Shown: in pieces, positions 4,233 through 42,852 of the stretch
How positions within the stretch are numbered: position 1 is the stretch's first letter
How the letters are laid out: each line of letters starts with the position of its first letter
Made by a program: the position numbers and the translations under genes
The notes under the pieces: generated by a model
Database searches by the model: none
What the model was told of the DNA's origin: nothing
What the model saw: only the letters and a program-made list of their open reading frames with translations
IMG/VR virus record: IMGVR_UViG_3300016471_000620
Location: 1-56,260 of that record
DNA from: a virus
Taxonomy: Duplodnaviria; Caudoviricetes
Length of the DNA: 56,260 nucleotides
Direction: 5' to 3' (one strand)

Positions 4233-4239
4233 ACCGGCA

Positions 4240-5540: not shown

Positions 5541-5544
5541 TCCA

Positions 5545-6099: not shown

Positions 6100-6114
6100 C
6101 CAAGCGGTGCACAA

Positions 6115-6555: not shown

Positions 6556-6557
6556 GT

Positions 6558-6613: not shown

Positions 6614-6619
6614 ATCGAA

Positions 6620-7138: not shown

Positions 7139-7193
7139 TCGTCTGGTCGCCGGCAGCCGCACCTGCGCTTCTAACCCACCTCAGGAACCACAC

Positions 7194-7547: not shown

Positions 7548-7594
7548 CTGCTGCGCGAGTGCGTGGCTCACGTGCCTCACTTGGAGAGTGATCA

Positions 7595-8478: not shown

Positions 8479-8480
8479 CA

Positions 8481-8870
8481 ATGCCGGCGGCGAGCACAGT
8501 GTCATTCACCATCGGCGGGACGACCGTCACTGTGAACGGCCCGGCCGGTGCGACCGATGTGTCGGCACTGCCCATGACGGCGGTTGATCGGGCCGCCGAT
8601 CACACACTCTGGAGCTACAAGTACACCAGCACCAAGAAGTGGGTCTGGTCGATGACACTGACGGACCTGACGGCGGCCCAGAAGGATGCGCTGGAGGACT
8701 TTTTCACGGACACAGCGATCGGACCCAGCAACGCTTTTACGTACGTTCACACCGACGGCGCGAGCTATTCGAGCTGCCGGTTTGTGATCACTGAGCTGAA
8801 GTGGCAGCGAGTGAACGAACGCATCTGGAGCGTGCCGGTTCAGTTCGAGGTCCCCTCACAGGTGGCGTGA
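8481..8870 (+). CDS. Minor tail protein (distal-tail/gpM-like)
   Basis: W-x-MTL..LT......LEDFF....G...F-x-Y pattern typical of Dit/gpM-like proteins. Confidence 0.55.
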   Translation: MPAASTVSFTIGGTTVTVNGPAGATDVSALPMTAVDRAADHTLWSYKYTSTKKWVWSMTLTDLTAAQKDALEDFFTDTAIGPSNAFTYVHTDGASYSSCRFVITELKWQRVNERIWSVPVQFEVPSQVA

Positions 8871-8874
8871 TTCG

Positions 8875-11808
8875 ATGGGGCAAGAAATCCATGAGCTGCG
8901 TGGGGTAATCGGGGGGGACGCCTCGGGGTGGCTGCGCGCGATCGGGCAGGCGATTCGCGGGGCGGACGATTTCGGTCGGCGGTGGGCCCAGGTCGCCAAC
9001 GATGTGGCGGAGGTCGGGGGGCGACTTGCAGCCGGGATTGCTGGTGCCGCGACGGCAATGGCGTCGGCTGTCGCTGTGACCGGTGGCAAGTTCAACGCGT
9101 TGAAAGAGAACGCCAATATCGCGTTCTCGACGATCCTGCGCGACGGGGCGAAAGCACGCCAGTTTCTCGGCGAACTGCAGAAGTTTTCACAGGAGACTCC
9201 GTTCACATTCGGGGGCCTCATCAAGAACTCCCAGTACCTGCTGGCGACTGGGTTCGCGCTGCAGGAGATCATCCCGACGCTGAGGATCCTCGGCGACACG
9301 ATGTCGGGGCTAGGCAAGGGGGAGGAAGAACTGAAGTTGGTGGCGGCTGCGCTGGGGCAGATCCGAAACAGCGCAAAGCTCTCTGCAGCCGACATGGCGC
9401 AGCTCACGAATCAGGGCATCCCAGCCTGGCAGATGCTGGCAGAGGCGATCGGGACGACAGTCGGCGAAGCTCGCAAAATGAGCGAGTCGGGGGCGTTCAG
9501 CGGCCAGCAGGCGTATGAGATCCTGTTGGGCGGGCTGCAGAACAAGTTCGGCGGTGGCATGGCGGCTGCCGCGGGGTCATTCGACCAGCTCGTCAGCAAT
9601 CTGAAGGACACGTTCGACATTCGCGCCGGGGAGATCACAGCGCCCCTGTTTGCGAGCCTCAAGAACGTGTTCAAGATGTTGCTGGACTACTTCGGGTCCG
9701 GAGAATTCAATCAAGCGGTGGCGGTTCTGGCCGACAAGTTTGGGCAGGCCGGAGCGGCGATTGAGCAGTTTGTCGGGGGCAACAAGGAGGCCCTGATCGG
9801 GACTGTCACGCAGGCGATTGGAGGCCTGGCCGACGGGGTGCAGAACCTCCTGCAGTGGTCGCGTGAGGCCGGCCCGGCAATCACAGACATGGCCCAGGTG
9901 ATCTGGTCTGTCGTGACCGCAGTCGGCGGGTTCGTCGCCCAGTACCCTCAGGTTCTGGTGGCCCTGGCACTGTGGCAGGGGGCCCAGATGATCGGGGCTG
10001 TAACCGCGGCCAGATCGCTGATTTCAGCAATCACTGGGACAATCTCGGTGGTCTGGAACATGATCAGTGCCTTTCGTTCTGCCATGGCCCCGGCTCAGGC
10101 TCTGGCAGGCCAGATGAGCCAGACCACCTCGGCGGCCGGAGGGCTGAAATCGGCATTCTCCGCCGGGGCGGCCTCTTTGATCGTCGCCGGGTTCTTCGCG
10201 GTGCTAATGATTGCCGCGCAGCAACTGCAGGCCGAGCTGGCCGAGACGCAGAAGTCGATGGACAAGATCTCCAACTGGCAGGCGGAGCAGGTCCGAAAGA
10301 AGATGCAGGCGGCCGGGCGGGAGGACAACCACAACGCCCGATTGGCTGGATCCCGCGAGGCTGAGGAGGCGGCGAAGGAAGAGGTGCGAGACGCAGAGAG
10401 GGCGTTGCGGGCGAGGGAGTCCGAGACGTCCCGCATCAGGAAAGAGCTGAATTGGACGAACGGCGGCATCGGGGCGATGCTCCCGGAGGCGCTCGGCGGG
10501 TTCGACCCTGTCAAGCAGGCCGAAAAACAAGAGCAGGATGCACGGGACCGCCTGGAGCGGGCGAAGCAGGCGGCGGAGGAAGCGGCGATTCAGCGGGAGG
10601 CTGCGGAGCGGCAGGCACGGGACGCGTTACACGGCCCGGCTCAACCAGGAGGTGGCCTGGGGGCTGGAGCCGGGGGGCCCATGCTGGGGCAGCCGGCCCA
10701 GCCGGAAGCCGAAGCGGCTGACGCTCTAGACAAAGCAACCAAAGATGCCGAAGACAAAATCCGCGCGGCATGGGAGCGTATCACCGACGACGTCGCCAAG
10801 CGCACGGAGGACATGGCCCTTAAATTCAGGGACCTGGCCACCTACATGGATCCAGCACAAGTGCAGATCTTGGCGGACTCGATGACGCGGCTGAACCAAG
10901 CCGTGATGGGCGGCGAGATATCGCAGGACCAGTACGATCGTCTGGTGCAGGGACTCAACCAGGTCGGCAACAGCTCGGGCGATTTGACCGAAAAAATGCA
11001 GAAGCTGGCGGCGGAGGGCAAGATCAGCGCCGAAGACGTGGGGGCCCTGCAGGCCGGCCTGTCCAACTTGATGCAGCAATACCAGCAGGGCAACATCACG
11101 GCCGACGGGTTCGCCCGCGGCATCAACGGGCTGAACGACGCAATGGCGGCCGCGACCTCGCAGGCCGAGGCACAGGCCCGGGCCGAAGAGCGCAAGCGTC
11201 TGATGTCCGGGCAGTTCACTGGGGACGAGCTGCGAACGGCATACGAGGACCGTATCATCGCGTTTCAGCGGCAGCGGATGCAGGCGCTGGTGGAGCAGCA
11301 GTTTCGCCAGTGGCAGTACGCAAATGGGTTTGTCGATCAGACGGCACGCAGCTTTTCGTCGCTCGGGCAGACGATGGGCAGGTTCAGCGTGGGCGTGCAA
11401 CAGGCGACAGGCTACCTGAATGGCATGAGTGGCGGAGGGGGTGCATTTGCCGCCTTGAACGGCCTGTTCTCGGGCCAATACGACTTCGCGCTGCTGTACA
11501 ACGAGCTCAACCAGCTCAAGCAGATCCTGAGTCTGCCGAACATCTCTAGCGAACGGCGAATGCAGGTCGAAGGCCGAATTGGCGAGATCCAGAGTCAGCT
11601 CAACGCCCCGCCTCCCCCGCCGATGTTCGTGGGCATGACCGGCAACGGGCAGATCGTCGACCCGGGGATTCAGACGCAGTCGGCTCGGGCTCAGGCGATG
11701 TCGATCACGGTCTCGCTCCCGAACCTGACGCGAGTCTCGCAGAGCGAGGCACAGATGCTGGTGCAGGCCCTGCAGTCCGAGATGCAACGACAGGGGAGGC
11801 GGCTGTAA
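8875..11808 (+). CDS. Tape measure protein
   Basis: 977 aa, Ala/Gly-rich and helical; tape-measure domain (ETPF...QL..QGIPAWQMLAEA...SNLKD). Confidence 0.93.
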   Translation: MGQEIHELRGVIGGDASGWLRAIGQAIRGADDFGRRWAQVANDVAEVGGRLAAGIAGAATAMASAVAVTGGKFNALKENANIAFSTILRDGAKARQFLGELQKFSQETPFTFGGLIKNSQYLLATGFALQEIIPTLRILGDTMSGLGKGEEELKLVAAALGQIRNSAKLSAADMAQLTNQGIPAWQMLAEAIGTTVGEARKMSESGAFSGQQAYEILLGGLQNKFGGGMAAAAGSFDQLVSNLKDTFDIRAGEITAPLFASLKNVFKMLLDYFGSGEFNQAVAVLADKFGQAGAAIEQFVGGNKEALIGTVTQAIGGLADGVQNLLQWSREAGPAITDMAQVIWSVVTAVGGFVAQYPQVLVALALWQGAQMIGAVTAARSLISAITGTISVVWNMISAFRSAMAPAQALAGQMSQTTSAAGGLKSAFSAGAASLIVAGFFAVLMIAAQQLQAELAETQKSMDKISNWQAEQVRKKMQAAGREDNHNARLAGSREAEEAAKEEVRDAERALRARESETSRIRKELNWTNGGIGAMLPEALGGFDPVKQAEKQEQDARDRLERAKQAAEEAAIQREAAERQARDALHGPAQPGGGLGAGAGGPMLGQPAQPEAEAADALDKATKDAEDKIRAAWERITDDVAKRTEDMALKFRDLATYMDPAQVQILADSMTRLNQAVMGGEISQDQYDRLVQGLNQVGNSSGDLTEKMQKLAAEGKISAEDVGALQAGLSNLMQQYQQGNITADGFARGINGLNDAMAAATSQAEAQARAEERKRLMSGQFTGDELRTAYEDRIIAFQRQRMQALVEQQFRQWQYANGFVDQTARSFSSLGQTMGRFSVGVQQATGYLNGMSGGGGAFAALNGLFSGQYDFALLYNELNQLKQILSLPNISSERRMQVEGRIGEIQSQLNAPPPPPMFVGMTGNGQIVDPGIQTQSARAQAMSITVSLPNLTRVSQSEAQMLVQALQSEMQRQGRRL

Positions 11809-11823
11809 GCCGGCAAAACAGCG

Positions 11824-14406
11824 ATGGCCAGAACCCTCACCAGCGCGGCAACGACGGCGAAAAACACCACCAACGGCGCGTTCCCGATCTACGTTTTGGA
11901 GATCCAGTGGGGTGGCGGGACAGGCACAAAATACTACGCCGGCGAGGTGCTGACCTCCCCGGTGACGGCAGAGGGCCGCGTGATCGACTGGGGATCGATC
12001 CAGATCGGGGCCGAACCAGGCCGCGCCGGAGGGCATGGGCAGGTTCAGATCACGCTCGCCGACCCTGACCTGGCGCTGAAACCGCTTCTCGAAACAAGCC
12101 CTGGCCCGATCAACAAGAAAGCGTTCATCCACCTGTTTTTCTCGGGCGGAACGTGGCCCACTGATCGCGTCACGATCTTTGGCGGCGTGCTCGACTCGCC
12201 GTGTGAGTGGGACGACGCGCGGGCCCAGTGGCGGATCGCGTTCAAGGGGCTGGAGAGCCTCTACAACCGGCAGGTGGGCCGCTACATCGACCGCGACATT
12301 TTCAACGACGTCGCGTGCTCGGAGTGCGAGGGGCAGATCATCCCGATCGCATACGGCAACCCGGTCAGGCGCATTCCCTGCTGCATCATCGAGCGCCCCG
12401 GGCAGTCGGCGCTGTACTCGACGCTGCAGCCTTTCGACTCGGCGCTGTACATCCAGAACACAGCCACAAACGACCTGTTCACAACCTCTGGGACACGCAC
12501 CCTGATTGTTGGATTCGCCGGGAATTACGAGACATTCACGGGCACGTGGGACGGCAGCATCGCGAACAAGTTCAACATCGCGACGCGTGATTCGTGGATC
12601 GCCTCAGGGTACATCTCGGCGACCTACGGGGTGGGCGGGCAGTCCTACCTGATGGTCCCTGTGGCGGACGTCCCCAACCCGACCAAGTCGCGTGGGGGAT
12701 ACCCAATTGCCCTGCAGATCGGCGGGAACTGGAACATCCTCCCGATCACGCAGTGGACGACCTCGGGCGGGTCAATTGCGGTCCTGAACGCCGGCAACTT
12801 GGGGGCCAACGTCGGCACGCCATACAAGATCGGCCGCTACCCCGGGCAGGTGCCAGTGTGGCCGCCTGGCACACAAGTGTACGAGGTCGACACTTGGAAA
12901 TTCGCGGTCAACTGGCTGCCGTCGAAGTCGGTCGACTACGTCGAGATCATGACCAAGGTGCAGATCCCGGGGGGGAACCTTGTCGACGCGTTTCTGCAGA
13001 TCAACCCGGCTCTGTACTCGGTCAACCTGAACGACACGACCTACAACACGGCTCTCGGGCGTGCAGGTGGGGACCCCGGAATCACGACGATCACCATGTC
13101 CAACCCGCCGATCAAGGCGGGTGCCAGCGACGCGCGGCTGTACTGCACCGTGAAGGGCATCACCGACGACAACACGTCGTCGGGAACGGTGCTGAGCGAC
13201 CCGGCCGATGTCATCAAAAACCTATTGGGGAACGCATTCATCGGGGCGGTCCCGTCGAGCGAGATCGACTCCACGTCGTTCTCGGCGGCCGCGACGGCCA
13301 TCACCCAGACGCTCGAACTGGCGATCCTCACCCCGCGGAAGCTGATGGACGTCTGCGGGGAGCTGGCCTACCAGGCGGGGGCGATCTTTTTCTGGGACGG
13401 CGGGCAGGCTCGGATCAAGAAGCTGGCGCACACGCTGAGCAGTGGGGACTCGGTCTACACGTTCGACGCGGGCAAGTACGCTCGGCAGACGTTGCGGGTG
13501 CGAGAGACCTCGCTGTCCAACACGCCGACGCAGACGACCGGCAAGTTCCGCACGTCGCTGGCGGCCCCTGAAAGCAAGCTCGTGCGGCGCTGCGCAGACG
13601 CGGTGACAGCGTTCGGCTGGCGAGACGACGAAATCGACATGTGGGCGATGCAGGTGCCCGCGAACGTGGCGGCGATCATCGAGTTCTGGCTCAAATTCAA
13701 GCTCCAACAGAACCAGACGATCAGCCTCGACTGCTTCCTCAACGGGGTGCATTTGCAGCCTGGCGACACGGTGACGCTCAACATCGCCCATGCCGGGACG
13801 AGTGTGCTGAACAACGTGCTCGGCCGCGTAAAGACGCTGCGGCACGACCCCGGGTCGGCGAACGGGGGCAAGGTCGACCGCATCTCCGTCGAGCTCGACG
13901 TCGGGCTCTACACATGGACCGTTTCTGCTGTCACACCGTACTCCCGCGAGTGCAATCCGCCCCTCGGAAATCCCGACCTGACAGTGGGGCCGGGGGCCGC
14001 GTTGGGCAGCGGGTCGGGCTGGATCTGGGGCTCGGGGCAAGCCCAGGCGTCCTGGCACGACAGCAACAACCAGATGGCCGGCGGGTCAGTCAACAGCGGG
14101 ACGGGGATTGGCACAGGCACAGGCACAGGAACCGGTTCTGGCTCTGGCAGTGGGTCGGGCTCTGGATCCAGCAGTGGATCGGGCGGAGTGACCTACCCCG
14201 CGGTGGGCAAACACGGGACCGGGGTGTGGTCGGGAGCGAGCTCCAAGACCGTCACGATCTACACTGGGGCCGGTGGATCCGAGACCGCGACTGCGTTCAC
14301 TGTGTCCGCGTACCTGCCCTCTGGCCTGACTGTCGCGTCGAACGCGCTGTGCATTCTCGACCAGGTGTACGGCGGGACGATTTACGCTCACCCGAACTCG
14401 TGCTGA
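11824..14406 (+). CDS. Tail tip/hub protein with a C-terminal Gly/Ser/Thr linker
   Basis: After TMP; IIPIAYG, DPADVIKNLL, LQPGD motifs; GTGTGTGSGSGSGS tract. Confidence 0.75.
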   Translation: MARTLTSAATTAKNTTNGAFPIYVLEIQWGGGTGTKYYAGEVLTSPVTAEGRVIDWGSIQIGAEPGRAGGHGQVQITLADPDLALKPLLETSPGPINKKAFIHLFFSGGTWPTDRVTIFGGVLDSPCEWDDARAQWRIAFKGLESLYNRQVGRYIDRDIFNDVACSECEGQIIPIAYGNPVRRIPCCIIERPGQSALYSTLQPFDSALYIQNTATNDLFTTSGTRTLIVGFAGNYETFTGTWDGSIANKFNIATRDSWIASGYISATYGVGGQSYLMVPVADVPNPTKSRGGYPIALQIGGNWNILPITQWTTSGGSIAVLNAGNLGANVGTPYKIGRYPGQVPVWPPGTQVYEVDTWKFAVNWLPSKSVDYVEIMTKVQIPGGNLVDAFLQINPALYSVNLNDTTYNTALGRAGGDPGITTITMSNPPIKAGASDARLYCTVKGITDDNTSSGTVLSDPADVIKNLLGNAFIGAVPSSEIDSTSFSAAATAITQTLELAILTPRKLMDVCGELAYQAGAIFFWDGGQARIKKLAHTLSSGDSVYTFDAGKYARQTLRVRETSLSNTPTQTTGKFRTSLAAPESKLVRRCADAVTAFGWRDDEIDMWAMQVPANVAAIIEFWLKFKLQQNQTISLDCFLNGVHLQPGDTVTLNIAHAGTSVLNNVLGRVKTLRHDPGSANGGKVDRISVELDVGLYTWTVSAVTPYSRECNPPLGNPDLTVGPGAALGSGSGWIWGSGQAQASWHDSNNQMAGGSVNSGTGIGTGTGTGTGSGSGSGSGSGSSSGSGGVTYPAVGKHGTGVWSGASSKTVTIYTGAGGSETATAFTVSAYLPSGLTVASNALCILDQVYGGTIYAHPNSC

Positions 14407-21859: not shown

Positions 21860-22750
21860 ATGAGCGAAATGAATCCCACTGTTTCGGCGGAAGTTCCTGC
21901 GGTCGTGGCCCGTGCACTGGCCGCGGGCGAGCGATTTTGGATTACCGACGACACCCTGTCGGCGGACCGGAGCCGTGTCCGCAGGGTGTTCTGGTTGGAG
22001 ATTGAGGGGGAGATGCGGGGGTGGGCCGGAGTGGCCCACTTCTGGGCTGGAACGACCTGGCTGGGCTGCCCACAGCCGGTGCAAGGGCTGCCGGAGTGGC
22101 TTGTCCCGCTCCTGTCGCAGCAGCAGCGGATGATCGACGCGCCGGCCCGCCCGGAAGACCCGAGCGAGTGCATGCGTCTGTCGGACGCGGTGTCGATCCT
22201 GGTGGCCCGCGGCGTCCCTGCCGAGGCAGCCCGAGACGTGGCCCATCGGTGGAGCGCACGTCGCGCCGAACTCCGGAAGGAGCAGGTCTGGGACGACGTC
22301 ATCGCGTACGTGTGGGCGGCCCGAGGGGGCCGCTCCGACTACATGGTCGACAACGTCGAGATCTGGGCCGTGCTGGCCGCGGAGATCTCCGGAGTCGGTG
22401 GATCGGACGACCCCATCGAGACCAAGGGGTGCGGAGAGCGGCATCCCGCTCTCAAGTGTCACCCCAAGAAAACCAGCCCAGCCGGAGAGGCGACAACCGC
22501 AGCAGTTGAACGGGCATGGGCTGAGGCTGGTAGCTGGAATATCGTGTGGGTCCCGCAGACAAACGGAGACTTGGGGGCACGCCGAAGCGATGGCCCCGTG
22601 TTCTGCGTCACGGAGTTGATCCCGCCACGTTGGCGGGCGAAGCTGGCTGCCGACATGATCGCAGGTGGCGCGACCGGCGAGGACGCCCGGGCGTGGGGCG
22701 AGGTGTACTTGGTGGCGAGGGCGGATTACCATCGAAGGGAGTCGGCGTAA
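21860..22750 (+). CDS. Hypothetical protein
   Basis: GGAGA RBS; long ORF. Confidence 0.55.
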   Translation: MSEMNPTVSAEVPAVVARALAAGERFWITDDTLSADRSRVRRVFWLEIEGEMRGWAGVAHFWAGTTWLGCPQPVQGLPEWLVPLLSQQQRMIDAPARPEDPSECMRLSDAVSILVARGVPAEAARDVAHRWSARRAELRKEQVWDDVIAYVWAARGGRSDYMVDNVEIWAVLAAEISGVGGSDDPIETKGCGERHPALKCHPKKTSPAGEATTAAVERAWAEAGSWNIVWVPQTNGDLGARRSDGPVFCVTELIPPRWRAKLAADMIAGGATGEDARAWGEVYLVARADYHRRESA

Positions 22751-22788
22751 CATCAACCCCATTGGGAAGCCCAGCCCGGAGAGTAAAA

Positions 22789-23139
22789 GTGATTGCGATT
22801 CGATTCTTGACCTTGGCGGCGCTGTCGCTGCCGGCGGTGATGGCCGCGACAGCGGCCCGAACGCCGCATCCTCTGCGGCAGCGAGTGCCACGTGAACGGC
22901 CCGTGATCAGCGTCGTTGCTGACGCGGCCGCAGCCTCTCCGCCAGTTCGGGTGGCGACCTACCCAGTACCGACTGGACGCTACGGGGCATCAGGCAGGGC
23001 GGTCCTGTTGGGAGTCCCAAATGCACCGCACCGCTGGCTCGGGCCGGACGCAGCCACGGTTGACAAGTATCGGGCCGAGACCGGCCGCAACTGGTGGGAC
23101 GACTTCGGGGCACCGAAGCCGCCATCGACATTCCCCTGA
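22789..23139 (+). CDS. Hypothetical protein with a signal-peptide-like N-terminus
   Basis: GGAGA RBS, GTG start, IAIRFLTLAALSLPAVMAATAA. Confidence 0.45.
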   Translation: MIAIRFLTLAALSLPAVMAATAARTPHPLRQRVPRERPVISVVADAAAASPPVRVATYPVPTGRYGASGRAVLLGVPNAPHRWLGPDAATVDKYRAETGRNWWDDFGAPKPPSTFP

Positions 23140-23293
23140 GTCGCTGCCGGATTGCAGACATCCGGCAGGGTTGATTAATTTTCCGAAGCCGCCGGCGCGG
23201 CCCAATTGGAGCAGGAAACTCCTGCGTTGCGATCGCTTTCCGCGCCGTCGGCTGATTTTTCCCCGCGAGTCCCGCGGGCCACATGGAGGCACA

Positions 23294-24073
23294 GTGTCAG
23301 ATCAAGAGGGAATGCTGGCCCAGGCCAGACTGATGTCACCCGAGTCGATCCGGCTACCGGACCGCATGGAGCGAGCGATCCAGATCGCTTCCAGCGGGAT
23401 GGTCACTGGGTCCGAAAAGCACGGATTCCTGATTCAATCCAGCAGCGGCCATCGGCACTACCGCGTCAATCGCGGGGTGTGCAACTGCCCGGACGAGTCA
23501 CCACGGTGCAAGCACGTGCTGGCCGTGGAGATGCTGCTGCGGTACGCCGACCACCTCGCCCAGCGGCTCGGGTGCGACCCTCCGGGAAGGGTGGAAGACA
23601 TCCCCGCATTGGAGGCGGAGTGGGAGTCACTCCTGCGCGAGTGTGCAGGATACAAGCCACCGCAGCCTGGGATGCTGTTCGGGTTCGGGCTGGAGGCCGT
23701 CCGGGACGACATGGCCCAGGACGACATCGACCGGGAAAAGTACACCGGGGTGCGATACCCAGCCGCGATCCGCACGCCAATCCCGTGGGTGGCGCAGATT
23801 CTCGGGCTCTGCCCGCAGTACGAGTTCCGACGTCAGTTCCTGCGGGGCAAGAAGGACTACCGCAAGGCCGACAAGCGGTTTCGGCGGGGGGTGTGGGTGT
23901 ACTGGCAGTTGCCGGCGGGCCTGTACGAGGCGCAGGAGGTTGAACCTGCCCACCCTCGCCCGGTCGGCAACAGGTTCTTTTTTCGAGTCGAAAACCAGTC
24001 TATCCGACGCATAAGCCGGAAGGAGGTGATCGCATGCCTGCGGCAAGGAAGCGGAAGCAGCAGTCACTCCTGA
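23294..24073 (+). CDS. SWIM zinc-finger protein fused to a second phage domain
   Basis: GGAGG RBS; Y.V....CNCPD....CKH; C-terminal PWVAQI.G...RQFL.G..DY...RGV domain. Confidence 0.7.
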   Translation: MSDQEGMLAQARLMSPESIRLPDRMERAIQIASSGMVTGSEKHGFLIQSSSGHRHYRVNRGVCNCPDESPRCKHVLAVEMLLRYADHLAQRLGCDPPGRVEDIPALEAEWESLLRECAGYKPPQPGMLFGFGLEAVRDDMAQDDIDREKYTGVRYPAAIRTPIPWVAQILGLCPQYEFRRQFLRGKKDYRKADKRFRRGVWVYWQLPAGLYEAQEVEPAHPRPVGNRFFFRVENQSIRRISRKEVIACLRQGSGSSSHS

Positions 24074-25275
24074 AGGTCAATCTCGGGATGGACGTGCTGA
24101 CCGCCGCACGCCAGCGGATCGCCACTGTTTTCGATGCGTTTCCCCGCATCTACGTCAGCTTCAGCGGGGGGAAGGATTCGGCGGCGATGCTCCATCTGGT
24201 GATGGAAGAGGCAGTCGCCCGAGGCAGGAAGGTGGGCGTGCTGTTTGTTGACTGGGAAGCCCAGTACGAATTGACCATTGCCCACGTCGCCGAGTGCCTG
24301 GAAATGTATCGCGACAACGTCGAGGTGCTTTGGTCCTGCCTGCCCCTGAAGACCACGAACGCCTGCAGCCAGCACGAGCCAGAGTGGATCTGCTGGCAGC
24401 CGGAAAAGCGTGCCATCTGGGTGCGGCAGATCCCGGAGCAGGCCACGATGACGAGCGACAATCCGCCCTCGTTTTACCGCGATCTGATGACTTTCGAGGA
24501 ATTCGTGCCGGCGGTCTCGCACTGGTACGGGCAAGGCCAGCCAGTGGCCTGTTTCGTGGGGATTCGGTCGGACGAGTCCCTCAACCGGTTTCGGTCATTT
24601 CGCCGCATCAAGTCTCGCTGGCAGGACCGCTGCTGGACGACCTGGCTGGGTCAGCACGCGTACAACGCGTACCCGATCTACGACTGGAAGACCGAAGACG
24701 TCTGGACGTATTTCGGCCGCTCCGGAAAGCCGTACAACAGGCTCTACGACCTGATGCACAAGGCCGGCTTGTCGATCCACCAGCAGCGCATCTGCGAGCC
24801 CTACGGGGACGAGCAACGGAAGGGGCTGTGGCTCTACCACTTGGTCGAGCCGAAGACGTGGACACGCATTGTCCAGCGGGTCGCGGGGGTCAACTCGGGG
24901 AGCCTCTACGCCAAAGAGCGGGGCAACATCCTCGGCAATCAGCGGATCGACCTGCCGAAGGGCCACACGTGGAAGAGCTACGCCAGATTCCTGCTGGACA
25001 CGATGCCCGGCCCCACGGCTGAGCATTACCGGACCAAGATCGCCAGGTACGTCAACTACTGCACGGGGGCCCTCGGGTATCTCGGTGACATCCCCGACCA
25101 CGCTGACGGTGATACCGGGGGGAAGGACATCCCCAGTTGGCGTCGCGTGTGTCGGTGCCTGCTCCGGAACGACTACTGGTGCTATTCGCTCTCGTTCAGC
25201 GCGACGAAGTCCGCCGCGTACGAGAAGTACATGCAGCTCATGAAGATACGCCGCAACAAGTGGGGGATCATGTGA
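24034..25275 (+). CDS. PAPS-reductase-like/DUF3440 protein (IbrA/YbdN family)
   Basis: PP-loop SFSGGKDS, VGIRSDES..R, YPIYDW...DVW, RICEPYG, PSWRR.C..LL.NDYWC..LSF. Confidence 0.9.
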   Translation: MPAARKRKQQSLLKVNLGMDVLTAARQRIATVFDAFPRIYVSFSGGKDSAAMLHLVMEEAVARGRKVGVLFVDWEAQYELTIAHVAECLEMYRDNVEVLWSCLPLKTTNACSQHEPEWICWQPEKRAIWVRQIPEQATMTSDNPPSFYRDLMTFEEFVPAVSHWYGQGQPVACFVGIRSDESLNRFRSFRRIKSRWQDRCWTTWLGQHAYNAYPIYDWKTEDVWTYFGRSGKPYNRLYDLMHKAGLSIHQQRICEPYGDEQRKGLWLYHLVEPKTWTRIVQRVAGVNSGSLYAKERGNILGNQRIDLPKGHTWKSYARFLLDTMPGPTAEHYRTKIARYVNYCTGALGYLGDIPDHADGDTGGKDIPSWRRVCRCLLRNDYWCYSLSFSATKSAAYEKYMQLMKIRRNKWGIM

Positions 25276-25691
25276 AATTCACGATTGACCAACTGCCGCA
25301 CACAGAAGCCAAACTGTGGCCGATGATTGGCCCCATTGTCACGTCGAGAGAGGTCCACAAGGAACTCGGCGGGGCGATGTTCAGCGACGTCCGCACTATG
25401 TGGTGGGTAGCCCACGAAGGACCTGTGGTCCTGGGCTGCTGCTGTGCCCGGGTGACAGACAAGGGTATCTGGATCGACAACGCGTATGTCGTGAAGGAAA
25501 GCCGCAAAAAAGGCGTGCACGCGGCGCTGTGCGTGGCACGCGAAAAGTGGATCGAGAAACAACAGCCATCCACAATCCTGGTGTGCTGCCGGGCCTCTCG
25601 GTGGCCCCATTTTGAAAAGCGGGGATTCATCTTGAAGTCAACCCGGGGAAGCTGGAAATACGCGGAGAAGCCATGCCAGAAGAGCGAGTGA
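25272..25691 (+). CDS. GNAT-family acetyltransferase
   Basis: GTG start overlapping the upstream stop; IDNAYV...R.KG motif A; F.KRGF. Confidence 0.7.
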   Translation: MKFTIDQLPHTEAKLWPMIGPIVTSREVHKELGGAMFSDVRTMWWVAHEGPVVLGCCCARVTDKGIWIDNAYVVKESRKKGVHAALCVAREKWIEKQQPSTILVCCRASRWPHFEKRGFILKSTRGSWKYAEKPCQKSE

Positions 25692-26317
25692 CGCAAGTCG
25701 TGCGCGAGTGCACGGCGCAGTTCGGGCTGCTGGCCGAACTGGAAGAACAGGACCGGATCGATGCGATCAACCAGATCCGACTGGCCCTGCACGCGGTGAG
25801 CCCGATGAGTGGCGAGCCAGTGGACTGCGTGCTGTGGGTACGGTCCGAAGAGGTGACCGCCAACGACTACAACCCAAACACTGTCGCGCCCCCCGAGATG
25901 GAGCTCCTGAGGCTCTCAATCGAGGCGGACGGGTACACGCAGCCGATCGTCACCTTCCCGGAGGGCGCGACCCGAACGACCGTCGACGGGTTCCACCGAG
26001 GGCGAGTGGGAAAGGAGTGCGAAAGCATCCGAACGCGGGTGAAGGGCCGGCTGCCTGTCACCACAATCCGCCCCGACCGAGAAGAGCGAAACAACCGCAT
26101 CGCGTCCACGATCCGCCACAACCGCGCCCGCGGGAAGCACGGGGTGGAAGCCATGTCGCAGATCGTGATGGAGCTCACGCGACGCAATTGGAGCGAGGAA
26201 CGCATTGCGAAAGAGCTGGGCATGGATGCCGACGAAGTGCTGCGATTGAGGCAGGTGACTGGCCTCGCAGAGATGTTCAAGCACCGCGAATTCAGCGAAG
26301 CATGGGAGACTGTCTGA
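25673..26317 (+). CDS. ParB/Srx-domain protein (IbrB/YbdM family)
   Basis: ANDYNPN.VAPPEM.LL..SI..DGYTQPIV, VDGFHR, ASTIRHNRARGKH. Confidence 0.9.
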   Translation: MPEERVTQVVRECTAQFGLLAELEEQDRIDAINQIRLALHAVSPMSGEPVDCVLWVRSEEVTANDYNPNTVAPPEMELLRLSIEADGYTQPIVTFPEGATRTTVDGFHRGRVGKECESIRTRVKGRLPVTTIRPDREERNNRIASTIRHNRARGKHGVEAMSQIVMELTRRNWSEERIAKELGMDADEVLRLRQVTGLAEMFKHREFSEAWETV

Positions 26318-26724
26318 TGCCCCTGTACCACTTGTCCAACGCCCAGAGGAAGGCACTGCTGGTCAACGGCCAGCCGATCATTCTGGCGCTGCCGATCCCC
26401 GCCAGCAGCGACCCGGAAGACCGCGGCGATTTGCTGGCATGGGCCCGGGCGCAGCTCCCGCAGGACGTTCGGATGTTGGCGAGGCAGGCGCATTGCGATC
26501 TGGTGACAGTCGCTCCAAAGCTCTCTGGGGGCCGCGCCAACCTCACGGAGGTGCTGGGTGACATTCTCACTGGGGAGGTCCCTCCGGACGTCTACACGAT
26601 CGCGATTGACGCGTGCCTGGTCACGTTACGGCCGCAGAGCGAGCGACGGGGCACATCGCCACGCCCGCAGTGGCCGCTGAACGTCATCCACGGCGGGAAG
26701 CCGCTGATCGACAGGGACGCTTGA
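26317..26724 (+). CDS. Hypothetical protein
   Basis: TGATG coupling to the ParB-like gene. Confidence 0.55.
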   Translation: MPLYHLSNAQRKALLVNGQPIILALPIPASSDPEDRGDLLAWARAQLPQDVRMLARQAHCDLVTVAPKLSGGRANLTEVLGDILTGEVPPDVYTIAIDACLVTLRPQSERRGTSPRPQWPLNVIHGGKPLIDRDA

Positions 26725-26858
26725 TTCGGGTCTGCCTGCCCGTATACTGTTGTCCTGTACAGTCCGGCAGTCGTCCGGACGCGGAAGCCGGCCCCCGGAA
26801 CCAAGGGGAGAAGTAGGATCCTCCCTGGTCGGCAGGTCCCAATTGATAGGGACGACAG

Positions 26859-27101
26859 ATGAGCAAGTACAAGGCAAATGGGCGGCAGGTGGTGGTTGTC
26901 GACGGAGGCAAAGTCGTGTGGCAGGGAGAGGACCCGGCGTTGGGCTGGCAGTACGCGCAAGGGAGAGGCTCGGGAGTGGTCTATCGCGAGTGGCGGCCAT
27001 TTCAACCCGAGTCTCCCGAAGTGTCCCCCGAAGCCGCCCAGCGGCGGGTGACACAGGCCCCGGTGGCCCAGCGAAGTGCCCCAGAAATGCCGCTGTCGTG
27101 A
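26859..27101 (+). CDS. Hypothetical protein
   Basis: Short ORF after the possible promoter TTGATT-16-TATACT. Confidence 0.45.
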   Translation: MSKYKANGRQVVVVDGGKVVWQGEDPALGWQYAQGRGSGVVYREWRPFQPESPEVSPEAAQRRVTQAPVAQRSAPEMPLS

Positions 27102-27122
27102 TGGAACTGTGATGGATCTGCG

Positions 27123-27175
27123 TGGGGCCGGGGGGATTATGAGTCCCCTGCTCTAACCGATTGAGCTACGGCCCC
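27123..27175 (-). mobile_element. Putative attP: tRNA-Ile2(CAT)-like sequence lacking the variable loop and T arm
   Basis: Minus strand reads GGGGCCG TA GCTC AATCGGTTA GAGC A GGGGA CTCATAA TCCCC C CGGCCCC A; overlaps the integrase stop. Confidence 0.8.
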
Positions 27176-28382
27176 GCGACGCTGTGTCCCCTCCCGAGTC
27201 CCCTGTTATGCCCTGCGCTGCTGCGTGGGCGTCCCAGAGGATCCGGCAGGTCTCGTCCGCGTCGAGTTCGACGTAGTACCTGAGCGTCGTCTCGATGCGT
27301 TCGTGCCTCATCAGGACCTGCAGGATCTGAGGCAGCACTCGCTTCGCCCATCGCGTTCCGAATGATCTTCTCAAGTCGTGCGCGGATGCGTATTTCGGGA
27401 GGCGTTCGCCGTTGGTCCCGCGGCGGTTTGACTGCGCGACGATCACGCCGGCGGCCTGGCCGATCTGCGTCACTACCCGGGATACGCTGGTCGGGTGCGG
27501 CCGCGAGTCTCGTTCTCGCTGTCGAGGCAAATCGAACACCAGTCCCTGGCGTCTGTCAGACGGGACCTGCCTGAGGAACTCCGCGAACTCTGGGGCCATC
27601 GGCAACAGCCGGTCGCGGTGGCCCTTCTCGCTCTCGGCAGGCACGCGAAACAGCGGGAAGTGGCCATCCATGTCGACGCGCATCCCGGAGAGTGAATCCC
27701 ACGTGAGCCCCAGCGATTCGTCCAATCGCAGCCCGGAAAGCCAGAGCGAACGCAAGTAGAACTCCCACCCTGCCGCCCGGGCTGGTCCCACAACGCTCGG
27801 AATGGCCCCCAGCATCGCCGCGAACTCCGCCTCAGTGATTGGACGGCCTTTCATCAGGCGGGCCTTCTGGCCCGTCTTGGCGCGTTTCACGACCGGGAAT
27901 TTCGGGATCTCGTGCAGGTATCCCAGGTCGACCGCGAACCGAAGTGCCGCGTGCAGATGCTTCGCGTAGCTGTTGATGGTCGATTCGGCACGCCCCCCCG
28001 CCCGAAGCTCCGCAAGCCACTGGGCCACGCGAGCCGAAGTGACCCCCGCCAGTGTCTGAGGCCGCATGAGCGCGTCGACCGAATCGAGGATCGTTGACGC
28101 CTTGTTTTCGGTGGCCTGCGCCAGCCCGCTCAGCGACTGCCGAAGATATCGCACGCGAAACTCCGCCCACGGGAGTGACCCGTCGGGCCTCACCACGGAG
28201 CTCGCCAGCTCTTGTTCCCAGCGGGCTGCCTCACGCTCCGCCTCTCGTCTGACTGCCGTTCCGGTCGACCTGGTGCGCTCTTCCCCGGTCTGGCTGTTGC
28301 GGCAGCGCATGTACCAGTATTTGCGGCCCGCCTTGCGGAGCAGCAGCACGCGCGGAGCGGTTTGTCGGCGGCGAGGGCACAT
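27153..28382 (-). CDS. int: Tyrosine integrase
   Basis: N-terminal arm-binding-like region (YWYMR...STGT), SGLRLDE, HDLRRSFG, LMRH..I.TT..YY. Confidence 0.95.
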   Translation of the reverse strand: MCPRRRQTAPRVLLLRKAGRKYWYMRCRNSQTGEERTRSTGTAVRREAEREAARWEQELASSVVRPDGSLPWAEFRVRYLRQSLSGLAQATENKASTILDSVDALMRPQTLAGVTSARVAQWLAELRAGGRAESTINSYAKHLHAALRFAVDLGYLHEIPKFPVVKRAKTGQKARLMKGRPITEAEFAAMLGAIPSVVGPARAAGWEFYLRSLWLSGLRLDESLGLTWDSLSGMRVDMDGHFPLFRVPAESEKGHRDRLLPMAPEFAEFLRQVPSDRRQGLVFDLPRQRERDSRPHPTSVSRVVTQIGQAAGVIVAQSNRRGTNGERLPKYASAHDLRRSFGTRWAKRVLPQILQVLMRHERIETTLRYYVELDADETCRILWDAHAAAQGITGDSGGDTASRGRSSIG

Positions 28383-28540
28383 CAGTCGACTGTGCGGGCC
28401 GCCCCGCAGATCGCGACCCAGGTGACGAGCCCCAGAATTGTCGAGACGGCCCAATGCCCGGTGAACATCACGCACGTGACGAACACGCCCACGCCCAGCC
28501 CCATGCCCATGATGACGATCAACTGCCGCTCGGTGTTCAC
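28382..28540 (-). CDS. Small two-TM membrane protein
   Basis: GTG start overlapping the upstream stop; two hydrophobic segments; TGATG coupling to int. Confidence 0.5.
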   Translation of the reverse strand: MNTERQLIVIMGMGLGVGVFVTCVMFTGHWAVSTILGLVTWVAICGAARTVD

Positions 28541-28887
28541 GATGGGCGATGCAGCTTGGGCTTCTTGGCCGCGCGGAGGCGTGCGGCCTGCTTGTCGGAC
28601 CGGATCTTCGTCGCCTCGGCGGCGCTCAGCACACCGTCCAGCCGGGCCCGAGCCTGGTCCTCCGCCTCGGCGGCGAGCTTCGTTGTCCATCCGGAAAGCT
28701 CCGGGATCCTCCGGCGAATCACGTTGTCGCCGTGAACCAGCAGTGTCTCCATTCCCGCTGATTCCATTGTCTGGATCGCTGTCGCGACATCCTGCGACGA
28801 CCTGGCGAGAGCGTCCTTAACTCGAATCAGCTCCTTGATCTTCCGTGCGACTCGCATCTGGGCATCCCGTGTGGCATGTGGCAGCAA
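28537..28887 (-). CDS. Hypothetical protein at the head of the int operon (possible regulator)
   Basis: Downstream of the leftward promoter TTGACA-18-GATACT. Confidence 0.55.
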   Translation of the reverse strand: MLPHATRDAQMRVARKIKELIRVKDALARSSQDVATAIQTMESAGMETLLVHGDNVIRRRIPELSGWTTKLAAEAEDQARARLDGVLSAAEATKIRSDKQAARLRAAKKPKLHRPS

Positions 28888-28894
28888 TGCATCA

Positions 28895-29007
28895 AGTATC
28901 GAACTGCAACGAAACTGCTGTCAATCTGCGAATCGCCGAAAGTTCCGAATCAGTTCAGTATTTTCTGACGCACTTGTGTTGCATTTCTGCCGCACAACTG
29001 CTACAAT
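28895..29007. promoter_or_regulatory. Divergent promoter pair (lysis/lysogeny switch region)
   Basis: Minus strand TTGACA (28924-28919)-18-GATACT; plus strand TTGCAT (28979)-17-TACAAT with ATG 7 nt downstream. Confidence 0.6.
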
Positions 29008-29013
29008 CATGCA

Positions 29014-29328
29014 ATGAGCAGCGCACGAACGAACGGAGTCACGGGCCGCAGGAGGCCGCCGAAGCAGGCCAAGATGGTCGAGCCGATTGTGGACGGAGCC
29101 ACCTACACGAAGGAGCTGCTCAGGGATCGCCACGGGATTGGCACACGAGCATGGAATCGGCTCGTCAAGGCAGGGATGCCCGTCGACCGGATCGGAAACC
29201 GCGTGTTTCAGCGCGGGGAAGTGATTCGGGAATGGATTGCGCGAGTGGCGGCCGACAAGAGGGCGAGCCGTGCACACGCGCAGGATTTAGCAGGGATGCC
29301 CGCAACGGACGGCGGCAATGGGAACTGA
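29014..29328 (+). CDS. Excisionase/Cro-like winged-helix protein
   Basis: YT..L....GIG......L...G.P..RIG.R......I.EWI; divergent from int. Confidence 0.65.
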   Translation: MSSARTNGVTGRRRPPKQAKMVEPIVDGATYTKELLRDRHGIGTRAWNRLVKAGMPVDRIGNRVFQRGEVIREWIARVAADKRASRAHAQDLAGMPATDGGNGN

Positions 29329-29384
29329 GGGAGTAGCCTGGTGGGAAGCCCCACGGCGGTGTTGATTCCGTCGTGGGGCAACGA

Positions 29385-29455
29385 CCCGGGGTCGGCAAGT
29401 GGTCTGCCAGAGGGCTCATGCCCCTCGCACGCTGGTTCGAGTCCAGCCCCCGGCG
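29385..29455 (+). tRNA. tRNA(CAT) with initiator-like features
   Basis: Cloverleaf CCCGGGG TC GGCA AGTGGTC TGCC A GAGGG CTCATGC CCCTC GCAC GCTGG TTCGAGT CCAGC CCCCGGC G; no encoded CCA. Confidence 0.75.
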
Positions 29456-29751
29456 CTGAGTGTGGTAGTGAGCGAGAAGAAGTGCCGCTGAAGAGCTGGA
29501 AAACCACCCGGTCTGTATCCTCCGGGCGAAGTATCTGGCGTGGCGGCCCGGTCACGCAGAGAGCCGGTTAACGCCAACGCCGCGCCCCGCCTTGAGAGGG
29601 GACCCCACAAAAGACGGCGCACATTGGGCCGGGAGTCGCACCCGGGAGCATCCACGCAGCGACATTTTTTTTGTCTGGCGACGCAGTGGTTGCGTCAGCA
29701 GAAGTTCATGTTCCGGCCCGGGTTCACTTGGGCCGCGGTTTGGAGTAAATC

Positions 29752-29931
29752 ATGCTGGTGTTGGGACGCAAGGTCGGGGAGTACGTGCAGGTCGGACACG
29801 ACATTCAGGTGCACGTCGTCGATGTTCGGGGCGGCAATGTGCGGATCGGGATCGTGGCCCCGAAAGAGGTGCAGATCACTCGCCCTGAGCTTGAATCCGG
29901 GCTCGGCAGTTCCGACAAAACTGATTCCTAA
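29752..29931 (+). CDS. csrA: Carbon storage regulator CsrA/RsmA homolog (59 aa, absent from the ORF track)
   Basis: MLVLGRKVGEYVQVGHDIQVHVVDVRGGNVRIGIVAPKEVQITRPEL; GGAG RBS. Confidence 0.9.
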   Translation: MLVLGRKVGEYVQVGHDIQVHVVDVRGGNVRIGIVAPKEVQITRPELESGLGSSDKTDS

Positions 29932-29934
29932 CTG

Positions 29935-29964
29935 TTGACTTTAATCATGCACGAGTGTATGATT
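29935..29964 (+). promoter_or_regulatory. Sigma70 promoter with operator, site 3
   Basis: TTGACT-17-TATGAT; AATCATGCAC-GA-GTGTATGATT. Confidence 0.8.
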
Positions 29965-30007
29965 CAGCCGTCGGGGCAATCAGTTACTCTTGTCGGAGAG
30001 CAGCAGC

Positions 30008-30331
30008 ATGTCGGAGCGGTTTTTCGAGACAACCATTGAGGATGCCGATCGCAGGATCGAGTTCGACGTCCGGATTCAGTGGGAGCGGTGGGAAGATGAG
30101 GGCCGGAGGACGTGCGTCGCGGCAACGCACGTCAAAGTGACTGGCGGGCGGGTCGCATTCCGTGGGATGGTCTCCGCTGGGGCCCGCAACACAGTCTGGT
30201 GCGAGATCGACGCCGACGATATCGCGACGATTTGCGTGCAGGATTTCTGCCGCAAATACAGGGACGAGATCGACGACGCTGTCGTCGCTGAGCACGAGCG
30301 GATCGAGGACGCAGGGCTCTGCCTTGTCTGA
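30008..30331 (+). CDS. Hypothetical protein
   Basis: GGAGA RBS; first gene after operator site 3. Confidence 0.6.
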   Translation: MSERFFETTIEDADRRIEFDVRIQWERWEDEGRRTCVAATHVKVTGGRVAFRGMVSAGARNTVWCEIDADDIATICVQDFCRKYRDEIDDAVVAEHERIEDAGLCLV

Positions 30332-31379
30332 CTTGTCTGATCGCAAGAAGCACCTGAGCCCCTCGCAGCTCGACATGATGTCGCGCTGCGGGGAGGCGTA
30401 TCGGAGAAGGTACATCGAGGGGCAACGGATTCCCCCCGGGATTGCAATGCTGAGCGGCACTGGCGTGCATGCCGGTGCCGAAGTCAACTTTCGGCAGAAG
30501 ATCGACACTCACGTCGACCTGCCGGCGGAGGACATTGTCGACGCGTCGGTGGACGGGTTCGACCGCGCTCTTTCTCGCGGATATGAGCGCGGCCCGGAGG
30601 ACGAGCATCCGGACGTTGCTCGGGACAGCGTGGCCGACATGGCTCGGCTCTACGCGGACGAAGTGGCCCCGGAGTACCAGCCTCGGTTCGTGGAGCAGAT
30701 GGTGCGGATCGAGCTGCCTGGCTCGCACGACATGCTCGGCGTGCTGGACATGGCGGACGATGCTGGCCGGGTCGTCGACCTGAAGACGTCCGGCAAGGCG
30801 AAGTCACAGGCTGAGGCCGATGCCAGCCCGCAACTCACGTTCTACGCGGCGGCCCACAAGGTGCTGACGGGCAATCTGGCCGAAACTGTTCGGCTCGAAG
30901 TCTTGGTCAAGAACAAGACCCCGAAGCGGGTGATGCTCGAATCCACCCGCGGGCCGGCCGACTTTGCGGCGCTGGCCAATCGCATCAACACCGCCTCGGC
31001 TGCGATTGAGGCTGGTGTGTTCCTGCCGGCCGATCCCAGTTCGTGGATGTGCTCTCCGCGCTGGTGCGGATACTACAGCACATGCCGTTACGTGGCCCAA
31101 CGGGAGCGGGTGTTTGTGGACCTGGCTGGTTCCGATACGGGATCGGCTCAGCCAATCGTAAGGCCTGCGACGCGTGCCAAGTCGTACGCCAGCCCGCTGG
31201 CCAGAATGCTGGACATGGACCCGCACTGTGCGATGTGCCGGTGCGAGTTGAGCAAACGTACCGCGCTGCTGGGGTTCATCGTGCCGCTGTCTGCCGGCGG
31301 TGCGAACAGCCCAGAAAACTACTGTCTTTTGTGCCGCGCCTGTGCGTCGCGGCGACTTACCACCAAGTCCTCTGAGTAG
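30324..31379 (+). CDS. PD-(D/E)xK RecB/Cas4-like exonuclease with a C-terminal degenerate HNH-like zinc domain
   Basis: LSPSQL...C, G..D...VVDLKT, QL..Y, C...WC.Y...C; then CAMC...IVPLSAGG....N...LC..C. Confidence 0.85.
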   Translation: MSDLSDRKKHLSPSQLDMMSRCGEAYRRRYIEGQRIPPGIAMLSGTGVHAGAEVNFRQKIDTHVDLPAEDIVDASVDGFDRALSRGYERGPEDEHPDVARDSVADMARLYADEVAPEYQPRFVEQMVRIELPGSHDMLGVLDMADDAGRVVDLKTSGKAKSQAEADASPQLTFYAAAHKVLTGNLAETVRLEVLVKNKTPKRVMLESTRGPADFAALANRINTASAAIEAGVFLPADPSSWMCSPRWCGYYSTCRYVAQRERVFVDLAGSDTGSAQPIVRPATRAKSYASPLARMLDMDPHCAMCRCELSKRTALLGFIVPLSAGGANSPENYCLLCRACASRRLTTKSSE

Positions 31380-42571: not shown

Positions 42572-42852
42572 GCGACTCAAAAGACAAACGCCTGTTGCTC
42601 TATCAGTCCATTCCAGTGGGTTCGGTCGTCAAATTTGTCGGTCGTGGGTGGCGTCGTCAGACAATGGGAACTGTGGTCGCAAAGCTCGACGACAAGATTA
42701 CGGGGATGGCCCGCTATCAAGTCGAGTTCCACGAAGACGGCGCGAAGTGGGATGTGTGCCGGTGGGAACTGTCGACGCAAAGTCGACTGACCCGAGAAAG
42801 GAAAAAACGGGAGCGGGAAGCGATCATCAAGAAAGCGAGGGGTGACGAATGA
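42568..42852 (+). CDS. Hypothetical protein (SH3-like)
   Basis: Coupled ORF, beta-rich. Confidence 0.5.
   Translation: MSDSKDKRLLLYQSIPVGSVVKFVGRGWRRQTMGTVVAKLDDKITGMARYQVEFHEDGAKWDVCRWELSTQSRLTRERKKREREAIIKKARGDE

Follow-up and report, generated by a model that had tools for sequence, protein, structure and literature searches.

Overlapping the end of the tyrosine integrase gene (int) of a tailed phage, we found a 53-nt element that resembles a tRNA(CAU) gene from which the variable loop and the T arm are missing. Judging from its sequence and surroundings, this element is probably the attP core of an integrase of the anticodon-loop class, through which a phage of freshwater, Gemmataceae-like Planctomycetota would donate the 5' half of a host tRNA gene; its T arm would have been lost by a deletion between AATCCC repeats. 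The attP so proposed is of the rare type that donates a tRNA 5' half; its tRNA piece overlaps the int stop codon and would keep a deletion remnant of the tRNA 3' end. The window, meaning the whole stretch of DNA analyzed (56,260 nt), is an entire IMG/VR virus record with a CheckV completeness of 99%.

Table 1. Location of the features discussed, in window coordinates
Feature	Coordinates	Strand	Basis or remark
Tyrosine integrase (int)	28475..27153	(-)	Longest ORF, 440 aa; PF00589, E = 1.5e-10
116-aa ORF upstream of int, with sigma-70-like match	28537..28924	(-)	No Pfam match
Two direct copies of AGGGGAC[T/A]C, candidate P-arm integrase-binding repeats	27184..27204	(-)	In the int 3' tail; encode GDSGGDT
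T-arm-less tRNA(CAU)-like element, proposed attP core region	27123..27175	(-)	53 nt; direct reading and Rfam
Acceptor 5' strand GGGGCCG	27175..27169	(-)	Followed by TA
Anticodon arm GGGGA-CTCATAA-TCCCC	Loop CTCATAA 27143..27137; CAT 27141..27139	(-)	
Junction C	27131	(-)	Single base between anticodon arm and acceptor 3' strand
Acceptor 3' strand CGGCCCC	27130..27124	(-)	7/7 complementary to the 5' strand
Discriminator A (A73)	27123	(-)	
Tandem 11-mers AGATCCATCAC / AGTTCCATCAC	27098..27119	(-)	Immediately after the element, between core and P' arm; repeat family D8
Tandem pair GGGGACAC / GGAGACTC, candidate P'-arm repeats	27009..27028	(-)	12-nt period
Complete tRNA, anticodon CAT	29385-29455	(+)	Rfam, 44.7 bits; also in L004
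104-aa ORF preceding this tRNA	29014-29328		No family match
PAPS-reductase/DUF3440 protein	24034-25275	(+)	Just beyond the P' side of attP
Weak GNAT-like ORF	25137-25691	(+)	Within 24034-26317, as is a 214-aa ORF without family
DNA methyltransferase	42849-44201		
Terminase large subunit	47644-49332		PHROGs
Portal	50380-51849		PHROGs
Head morphogenesis	51846-53930		PHROGs
Head-tail adaptor	4240-5184		PHROGs
Tape measure	8875-11808		PHROGs

The terminase, portal, and head genes lie at 47-54 kb and the adaptor and tape measure genes at 4-12 kb, indicating that the structural module wraps around the ends of the window, and a 56,483-nt Logan contig contains the att stretch at another permutation and offset. 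The record is a circularly permuted, non-integrated genome of a free tailed phage. Because it is not integrated, the tRNA piece beside int is in the attP state and represents neither attL nor attR. The runs containing the phage were freshwater and lake metagenomes.

Read directly on the minus strand, the element consists of an acceptor 5' strand, a D arm (GCTC-AATCGGTTA-GAGC, followed by A), an anticodon arm and, after one base, an acceptor 3' strand with its discriminator; the variable loop and the T arm are absent from 27175..27123(-). The Rfam model RF00005 aligned with it from end to end (43.6 bits versus a gathering score of 29), a single base standing in for the 21 model positions of variable loop and T arm. 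Its predicted RNA fold is exactly the three-helix shape (-27 kcal/mol, z = -3.06), equalled by one of 200 shuffles. Direct reading, Rfam and folding thus confirmed an earlier reading of the sequence alone, which had described a tRNA 5' half joined to a complementary acceptor 3' strand and an A. The 5' half is complete (44 nt, tRNA positions 1-44), occurs once in the window and in none of 100 shuffles, and lies 3' of int in the same sense; it adjoins int and runs through the anticodon arm, as in attP sites of the anticodon-loop class. ARAGORN made no call on the 53 nt, which lack the full cloverleaf, T arm included, of a functional tRNA gene. Nematode mitochondria have T-arm-less tRNAs that likewise consist of acceptor, D and anticodon arms only and that work with dedicated partner proteins, whereas nothing suggests that the phage element is charged or takes part in decoding. 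The label tRNA-Ile2, which denotes a CAU anticodon reading AUA once it carries lysidine, was given to it earlier and was harder to sustain against elongator tRNA-Met: for the full tRNA of its closest host-side counterpart (Gemmataceae MAG G001, see below), the best Escherichia coli matches were a PGAP-annotated tRNA-Ile (anticodon CAT) and a tRNA-Phe, both at 81% over 57 nt, so that the BLAST isotype is ambiguous.

A missing T arm could arise from misassembly or from a chimera, and all the evidence on the junction is drawn from assembled contigs. However, the same 53 nt, with the same flanks and a gap-free junction, were found in a separate JGI metagenome contig (L004) from a strain diverged by 3.7% (96.3% identity over 10,751 aligned bases, 375 mismatches). 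The junction was also present in Logan contigs from different studies. In run X6, a 447-nt contig over 26924-27370 had zero differences, and in run X8, which contains a lineage diverged by 2-3%, a contig on 26400-27168 (18 other letters) crossed the junction without a gap, a second one covering 27139-27900 (23 other letters). Furthermore, the 6-7-nt repeat at the junction is far shorter than assembler word sizes. The objection that the T arm is missing through an artefact was therefore not upheld, and we regard such an origin as exceedingly improbable.

The product of the int ORF matched PF00589 over residues 241-405 (41.6 bits versus a cut-off of 27.1), and the motifs HDLRRSF and TTLRYY are readable in it; the database gene call for int (P0001) is 409 aa long, for which the start would be at 28382. 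The ORF ends in ASRGRSSIG followed by the stop, and its last 23 bases, TAG included, are tRNA sequence. The TAG (27155..27153) corresponds to linear tRNA positions 21-23, that is, the last two bases of the D loop and the first base of the D-stem 3' strand, and these coordinates bear out the earlier proposal that the D loop supplies the integrase stop codon and that the last codons are tRNA sequence. The C-terminus RSSxG*, in the frame leading to the D-loop TAG, was shared by five among the 120 homologues listed (P0001, P0003, P0027, P0042, and P0046), of which P0003 has 78% identity. In P0002 (82% identity), the tRNA half is read in another frame, up to a TAA in the anticodon loop. An attachment site overlapping the integrase coding sequence is also described for the myxophage Mx8 in a passage of PMC6070905. 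In Mx8, the crossover lies inside the ORF and int gains a new 3' end, whereas the stop codon of the phage studied here precedes the anticodon loop and the proposed crossover (27143..27137) would lie 10-16 nt 3' of the stop. Integration would therefore leave the Int protein unchanged.

The main argument for an attP core comes from repeats that flank the element on both sides and that are, by their sequence, candidate integrase-binding arm sites. Besides the two copies of AGGGGAC[T/A]C in the int tail, a third one coincides with the anticodon stem (27149..27141). The motif AGGGGACWC has only these three occurrences in the 56-kb window, all within 27141-27204(-). The pair on the P' side starts 112 and 124 nt 3' of the center of the anticodon loop. 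With the broader motif GG[GA][GA]AC[AT]C, counted from the loop center, starts were found at -63, -51, -8, +112, and +124 in the window, at -105, +110, and +122 in the related locus L039, and at -139 and +112 in L041, which has a single P' copy. The distance of about 111 nt from loop to arm is thus constant in three tRNA contexts, which argues that the element is the attP core and that the exchange takes place in the loop. No arm-motif copies other than those flanking the element were found in 2.3 kb around int. At the protein level, a peptide repeat G[DN]xxG[DN][TS] was present in the last 70 aa of 44 of the 120 homologues listed and in the remainder of the protein in none of the 120; this tandem repeat probably reflects arm-binding DNA repeats inside the coding tail. 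The tandem 11-mers between core and P' arm are a possible site for an accessory factor.

These arm repeats also bear on the idea that the element no longer has a function, being what is left of a phage tRNA gene or of an earlier att site, and that another sequence acts as attP, such as the complete tRNA at 29385-29455 or a site outside any tRNA. A relic would fit with the pseudogene-like deletion of the T arm, with the second, complete tRNA 2.2 kb away, and with our failure to find either an exact host tRNA or a lysogen. However, the family arm motifs flank the element at the family spacing and have no copy elsewhere in the 2.3 kb around int, and the att pieces of relatives are located directly 3' of int as well. 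In addition, the intact 5' half is almost the same as that of a Gemmataceae tRNA, and the tRNA at 29385 is weakly matched in potential hosts (72% over 68 nt in G001, 92% over 25 nt in G120, none in G252). We consider a relic rather improbable.

To place the integrase, we compared it with its homologues, of which 1228 were found at E <= 1e-10 among 8000 scored candidates; the few source names were those of Planctomycetota, and tblastn of Int against 50,697 GenBank phage records gave no match. Thirteen viral loci of the family in IMG/VR were inspected. A tRNA piece was located just 3' of int in eight of them, each piece starting or stopping at the anticodon arm, and none was seen beside int in the other five. 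In L036-L038 (integrase with 52% identity), the sense 3' part of a tRNA-Arg(TCT), from the anticodon arm on, follows int after about 60 nt, and L047 has the sense 3' part of a tRNA-Ser. Antisense 3' parts reaching the anticodon loop were found in L041, L042, and L045. Finally, L039 (46% identity) carries, 18 nt after the int stop, a sense 5' half of tRNA-Arg(TCT) without T arm, which stops within the anticodon stem with no trace of an acceptor 3' strand; its int lies in the middle of a 46.5-kb contig. The tRNA species across relatives were Arg-TCT, Ser-GGA, Cys, Gln, Phe, and CAU. As their tRNA pieces break at the anticodon arm, the family appears to recombine at the anticodon loop and, judged by these loci, one family uses both orientations and both tRNA halves. 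Among ten family integrases from Gemmataceae genomes, six were convergent with a full tRNA-Cys or tRNA-Arg, which is the classical layout, one was convergent with a partial tRNA, and three had no tRNA. Of note, L036-L038 and L039 have the same tRNA-Arg(TCT) anticodon arm as core and opposite gene halves, both in sense orientation after int, and so offer a ready-made comparison for the switch of the donated half.

The anticodon loop is reportedly one of the sublocation classes of tRNA-targeting tyrosine integrases distinguished by Williams in 2002. The family described here resembles that class in its symmetric stem-loop core, in having attP beside int, and in the several tRNA species used within one family, and it differs from the classical picture of the class, in which the 3' part is donated, by its use of both orientations and both halves. 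The relevant section of the Phage_Finder paper (PMC1635311) paraphrases this classification and restates the usual 3'-part rule. Our phage also carries CGGCCCC and A, a segment that elements of the 3'-end class share with their targets, so that one may consider a crossover in the acceptor 3' strand; in that case, the host promoter would keep an intact host tRNA and the far junction would place the mini-tRNA beside int. Against this, every tRNA piece seen beside a family integrase breaks at the anticodon arm rather than at the 3' end, counting from the anticodon loop gives a constant arm spacing, and the perfect 44-nt 5' half would have no use. A crossover at the 3' end is thus very unlikely.

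Under the anticodon-loop reading, a host tRNA(CAU) gene would be the target, with strand exchange within the 7 nt of its anticodon loop. Since the tRNA homology is in sense orientation and at the int end of attP, the phage would donate the 5' half. In the integrated state, a complete hybrid tRNA, with its 5' half from the phage and its 3' half from the host, would lie downstream of int, and a truncated copy ending in the phage C, CGGCCCC, and A would remain under the host promoter. The predicted attL is a Gemmataceae-type leader and 5' half joined to ...TCCCC C CGGCCCCA CGCAGATCC, and the predicted attR is the int tail and 5' half joined to a variable loop and T arm. The earlier suggestion of an attP with crossover in the 5' half agrees with the location of the element where the family keeps its attP, with the family breakpoints at the anticodon loop and with the sense 5' half of L039, but no lysogen of this phage was found.

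Elements with a "reversed target gene orientation", which recombine with the 5'-distal part of a tRNA gene, are said to have been described by Zhao and Williams in 2002. As in the present phage, they carry the 5' part of the tRNA, the restored gene combines element 5' and host 3' sequences, and a truncated copy remains at the host promoter. The phage differs from them by the overlap of its tRNA piece with the int stop, by the perfect acceptor 3' strand without a T arm, and by the lack of a visible promoter of its own. In a passage on tRNA targets, 5'-distal recombination is called "considerably less frequent" than 3'-distal recombination, with five reports cited (Krupovic et al., 2019, PMC6563490), including Zhao and Williams (2002). 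Our narrow literature search found no publication on a T-arm-less tRNA copy serving as attP.

We then searched for the host tRNA. The exact 44-nt half with the matching 3' strand gave no match in 185,579 species genomes and none in viral contigs, where a 38-nt core also gave none, and a genus-level genome search matched none of two genomes. The 44-mer alone, searched in 241 million metagenome records, retrieved only the phage itself (relative L004). A loosened pattern (D stem, free D loop, and anticodon arm) gave 15 loci in species genomes, namely six full tRNAs and nine 5' halves followed by unrelated DNA (L005, L010-L014, L016, L017, and L019). These nine came from MAGs of Actinomycetales, Burkholderiales, a beta-proteobacterium, two Terracidiphilus, Verrucomicrobiales, Planctomycetota, Gemmataceae, and Vulcanimicrobiota, suggesting that 5'-half-donating integration at tRNA(CAU) may be widespread. 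When six of these genomes were checked for a second tRNA copy, it was found on the same strand and contig in G001, G253, and G256 and on another contig in G255; G254 and G257 had none.

The closest host-side half (L014), in the Gemmataceae MAG G001, is identical to the phage half at 43 of 44 bases. Among 252 Gemmataceae genomes, only G001 had an ungapped match with at most three mismatches, and six others had gapped matches of 92-96%. For the near-identical host tRNA expected earlier, G001 is the nearest candidate; the exact 44-mer was not found outside the phage in the genomes and metagenomes searched. Full tRNA genes of Gemmataceae have the acceptor stems GGGGCCT/AGGCCCC or GGGACCG/CGGTCCC, and the phage stem GGGGCCG/CGGCCCC is one compensated pair away from each of them (G4-C69 or G7-C66), as expected if it was copied from the gene of an unsampled relative. 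The phage also has the six-base leader CGTCGC in common with G120 and G135.

The locus in G001 has the layout predicted for a lysogen. Behind a host ATP-grasp gene come, in this order, a -10-like TAAAAT, the truncated 5' half, non-tRNA DNA, an element of about 9.9 kb, and a full tRNA-CAT, which is codirectional with the element integrase, overlaps the end of that ORF and is the only full copy with this anticodon arm in G001. The element (L024, G001:C12:648000-664000, about 3100-13100) encodes a DUF3987/Toprim primase-helicase, a resolvase, a tyrosine integrase, and an N-terminal fragment of a terminase large subunit, a gene set resembling that of a phage satellite, and it has its own TACAAT 13 nt before the rebuilt tRNA. 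Between the two 5' halves of G001, the D loop and positions 6 and 43 differ and GAGCAGGGGACTCATAATCCC is shared, which suggests that the element brought its own 5' half and that the exchange occurred in or near the anticodon loop. With only 25% identity between its integrase and the window Int, this element is an analogue and not the lysogen of a relative. A CAACCCC located 13 nt after the G001 junction was tried as an acceptor remnant and rejected, its pairing at five of seven positions with GGGACTG of the element being within chance by our estimate; it pairs at four of seven with the preceding host-side GGGACCG.

A truncated and then a full tRNA(CAU) on one strand were also seen in G253 (Planctomycetota, 28.8 kb apart) and in G256 (Actinomycetales, 49 kb apart). 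The ORFs just upstream of these two full tRNAs belong to no Pfam family, so an adjacent integrase was not demonstrated. The proposed lysogen layout, in which a truncated 5' half precedes a full tRNA, thus exists in Gemmataceae, Planctomycetota, and Actinomycetales, while the attL and attR of the phage itself were not found. Indeed, no prophage of it was present in the 252 Gemmataceae genomes, seven of which matched 22000-31000 solely through the tRNA half. Logan contigs of runs X5-X8 did not join a phage flank to foreign DNA at the element, which is uninformative on lysogens since such contigs drop rare variants, and the loose contig ends at 27133-27179 in these runs were full tRNAs of other organisms. 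The L039-type Arg(TCT) half matched 109 of 401 Planctomycetota genomes, 108 of them with a single copy; G408 had two copies on different contigs, and no two-copy pair on one contig was seen among the 401 genomes. As a separate observation, L060 (G251:C79, about 1500-1550, minus strand) contains a Gemmataceae tRNA(CAU) through the anticodon arm and TGGT of the variable loop, followed by unrelated DNA, a junction point that differs from the anticodon-loop type.

The missing T arm can be explained by one deletion. AATCCC occurs twice, at the anticodon and T arms, in five of the six aligned full host-type tRNAs, one copy spanning the anticodon loop and stem and the other the end of the T loop and the start of the T-stem 3' strand. 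If the tRNA copy in attP was once complete, a single deletion between its two AATCCC(C) repeats would leave ...CTCATAATCCC, the last two T-stem bases, and then the acceptor 3' strand. With CCCCC as the T-stem 3' strand, the product is exactly the phage junction, including the "extra" C; the CCCCC T stem that this model assumes was found in no genome examined. The repeats suggest that the ancestor had a complete tRNA in attP. Without the deletion, core and P' arm would lie about 134 nt apart; with it they lie 112 nt apart, as is usual in the family, and this spacing could have favored the deletion. The sequence-only reading had left this simplest origin of the missing arm out of consideration. 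As a single repeat deletion explains the shape, the clean architecture requires no selection. A search of IMG/VR for other T-arm-less junctions (CTCATAATCCC, 0-4 nt, CGGNCCCA) gave two matches, both without a tRNA 5' half and thus attributable to chance, and as L039 lacks an acceptor 3' remnant, the mini-tRNA shape is so far unique to the window lineage.

The same architecture has been read as an RNA device selected at the 3' end of the int mRNA, besides or instead of being attP, that would provide state-dependent retroregulation. As long as the phage is free, the 3' end of the int transcript would be a poor substrate for RNase P, and the stop codon would be retained. Once integration places a full tRNA after int, RNase P would cut 22 nt before the end of the ORF, giving a non-stop int mRNA and less Int. 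In phage lambda, sib is an RNase III site beyond the 3' end of int that integration detaches from int. The proposed device, for which lambda sib was the model, is similar in that an RNA structure past the int 3' end would have its linkage to int altered by integration. The logic would be opposite, as lambda loses the RNase III site on integration and our phage would gain a better RNase P substrate.

The only sigma-70-like match on the int strand (TTGACA-18-GATACT, 28924..28895, a consensus match only) is a possible start of a transcript running through int into the tRNA element, and no terminator-like site was found in 26300-29600. In host copies, a -10 box of the form TAnAAT ends 10-14 nt ahead of the tRNA, and the copy in the G001 element has a box of this type too, whereas the phage element would give the rebuilt tRNA no such promoter: no TAnAAT or sigma-70-like match is present within 30 nt upstream of the phage tRNA half, planctomycete promoters being poorly known. 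Without a visible tRNA promoter, co-transcription with int is likely, and the hybrid tRNA may be expressed by read-through from int.

This co-transcription and the absence of a terminator count in favor of an RNA device, together with the exact and stable fold, the fully paired acceptor 3' strand with A73, the int stop inside the tRNA (in the same frame in the five homologues listed above, and in another frame in one more), and the preservation of the junction in lineages diverged by 2-4%. However, a single AATCCC deletion gives the shape without selection, and by our own arithmetic zero changes in 53 nt at 3.7% divergence would occur by chance in about one of seven cases. Moreover, L039 is also a 5'-half donor and does without an acceptor remnant, both pattern matches for another mini-junction in IMG/VR were due to chance, and less Int in the prophage would hinder excision. 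On balance, a selected RNA device is unlikely. We are similarly doubtful, and slightly more so, that the T-arm loss is adaptive, with attP acting as a state sensor for int and prophage transcription being coupled to the host tRNA supply. If this were true, tRNA maturation would remove the last seven int codons and the stop, directing Int to non-stop decay. The hybrid tRNA might be the only gene of the cell for its isoacceptor, and loss of the 22 nt would also adjust the distance from core to arm in the intasome. The related idea of an addiction device was rejected as stated, since precise excision would rebuild the host gene.

The attP reading, which we favor, has several implications. Textbook tRNA-integrating phages restore the target gene through its 3' end, whereas this Planctomycetota family appears to carry either half and to use the anticodon loop in both orientations, and tools for finding prophage ends that seek only duplicated 3' tRNA fragments would miss elements donating a 5' half. 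In such lysogens, the working tRNA gene would sit behind the integrase gene and be partly phage-derived, which raises the question of who transcribes it. The window also offers a clean natural example of a tRNA arm apparently removed by a short-repeat deletion. Finally, the conserved core-to-arm distance of about 111 nt could guide the prediction of attP and attB in a phylum with few genetic tools.

Two other features near the attachment site were observed. The complete tRNA upstream of int, on the plus strand, is initiator-like, with a C1xC72 mismatch, three G-C pairs at the base of the anticodon stem, and a purine11-pyrimidine24 pair, and it has an odd anticodon loop, CUCAUGC. On the other side of attP, the PAPS-reductase/DUF3440 protein, the GNAT-like ORF, and the 214-aa ORF may form, together with the more distant DNA methyltransferase, a DNA-modification module.
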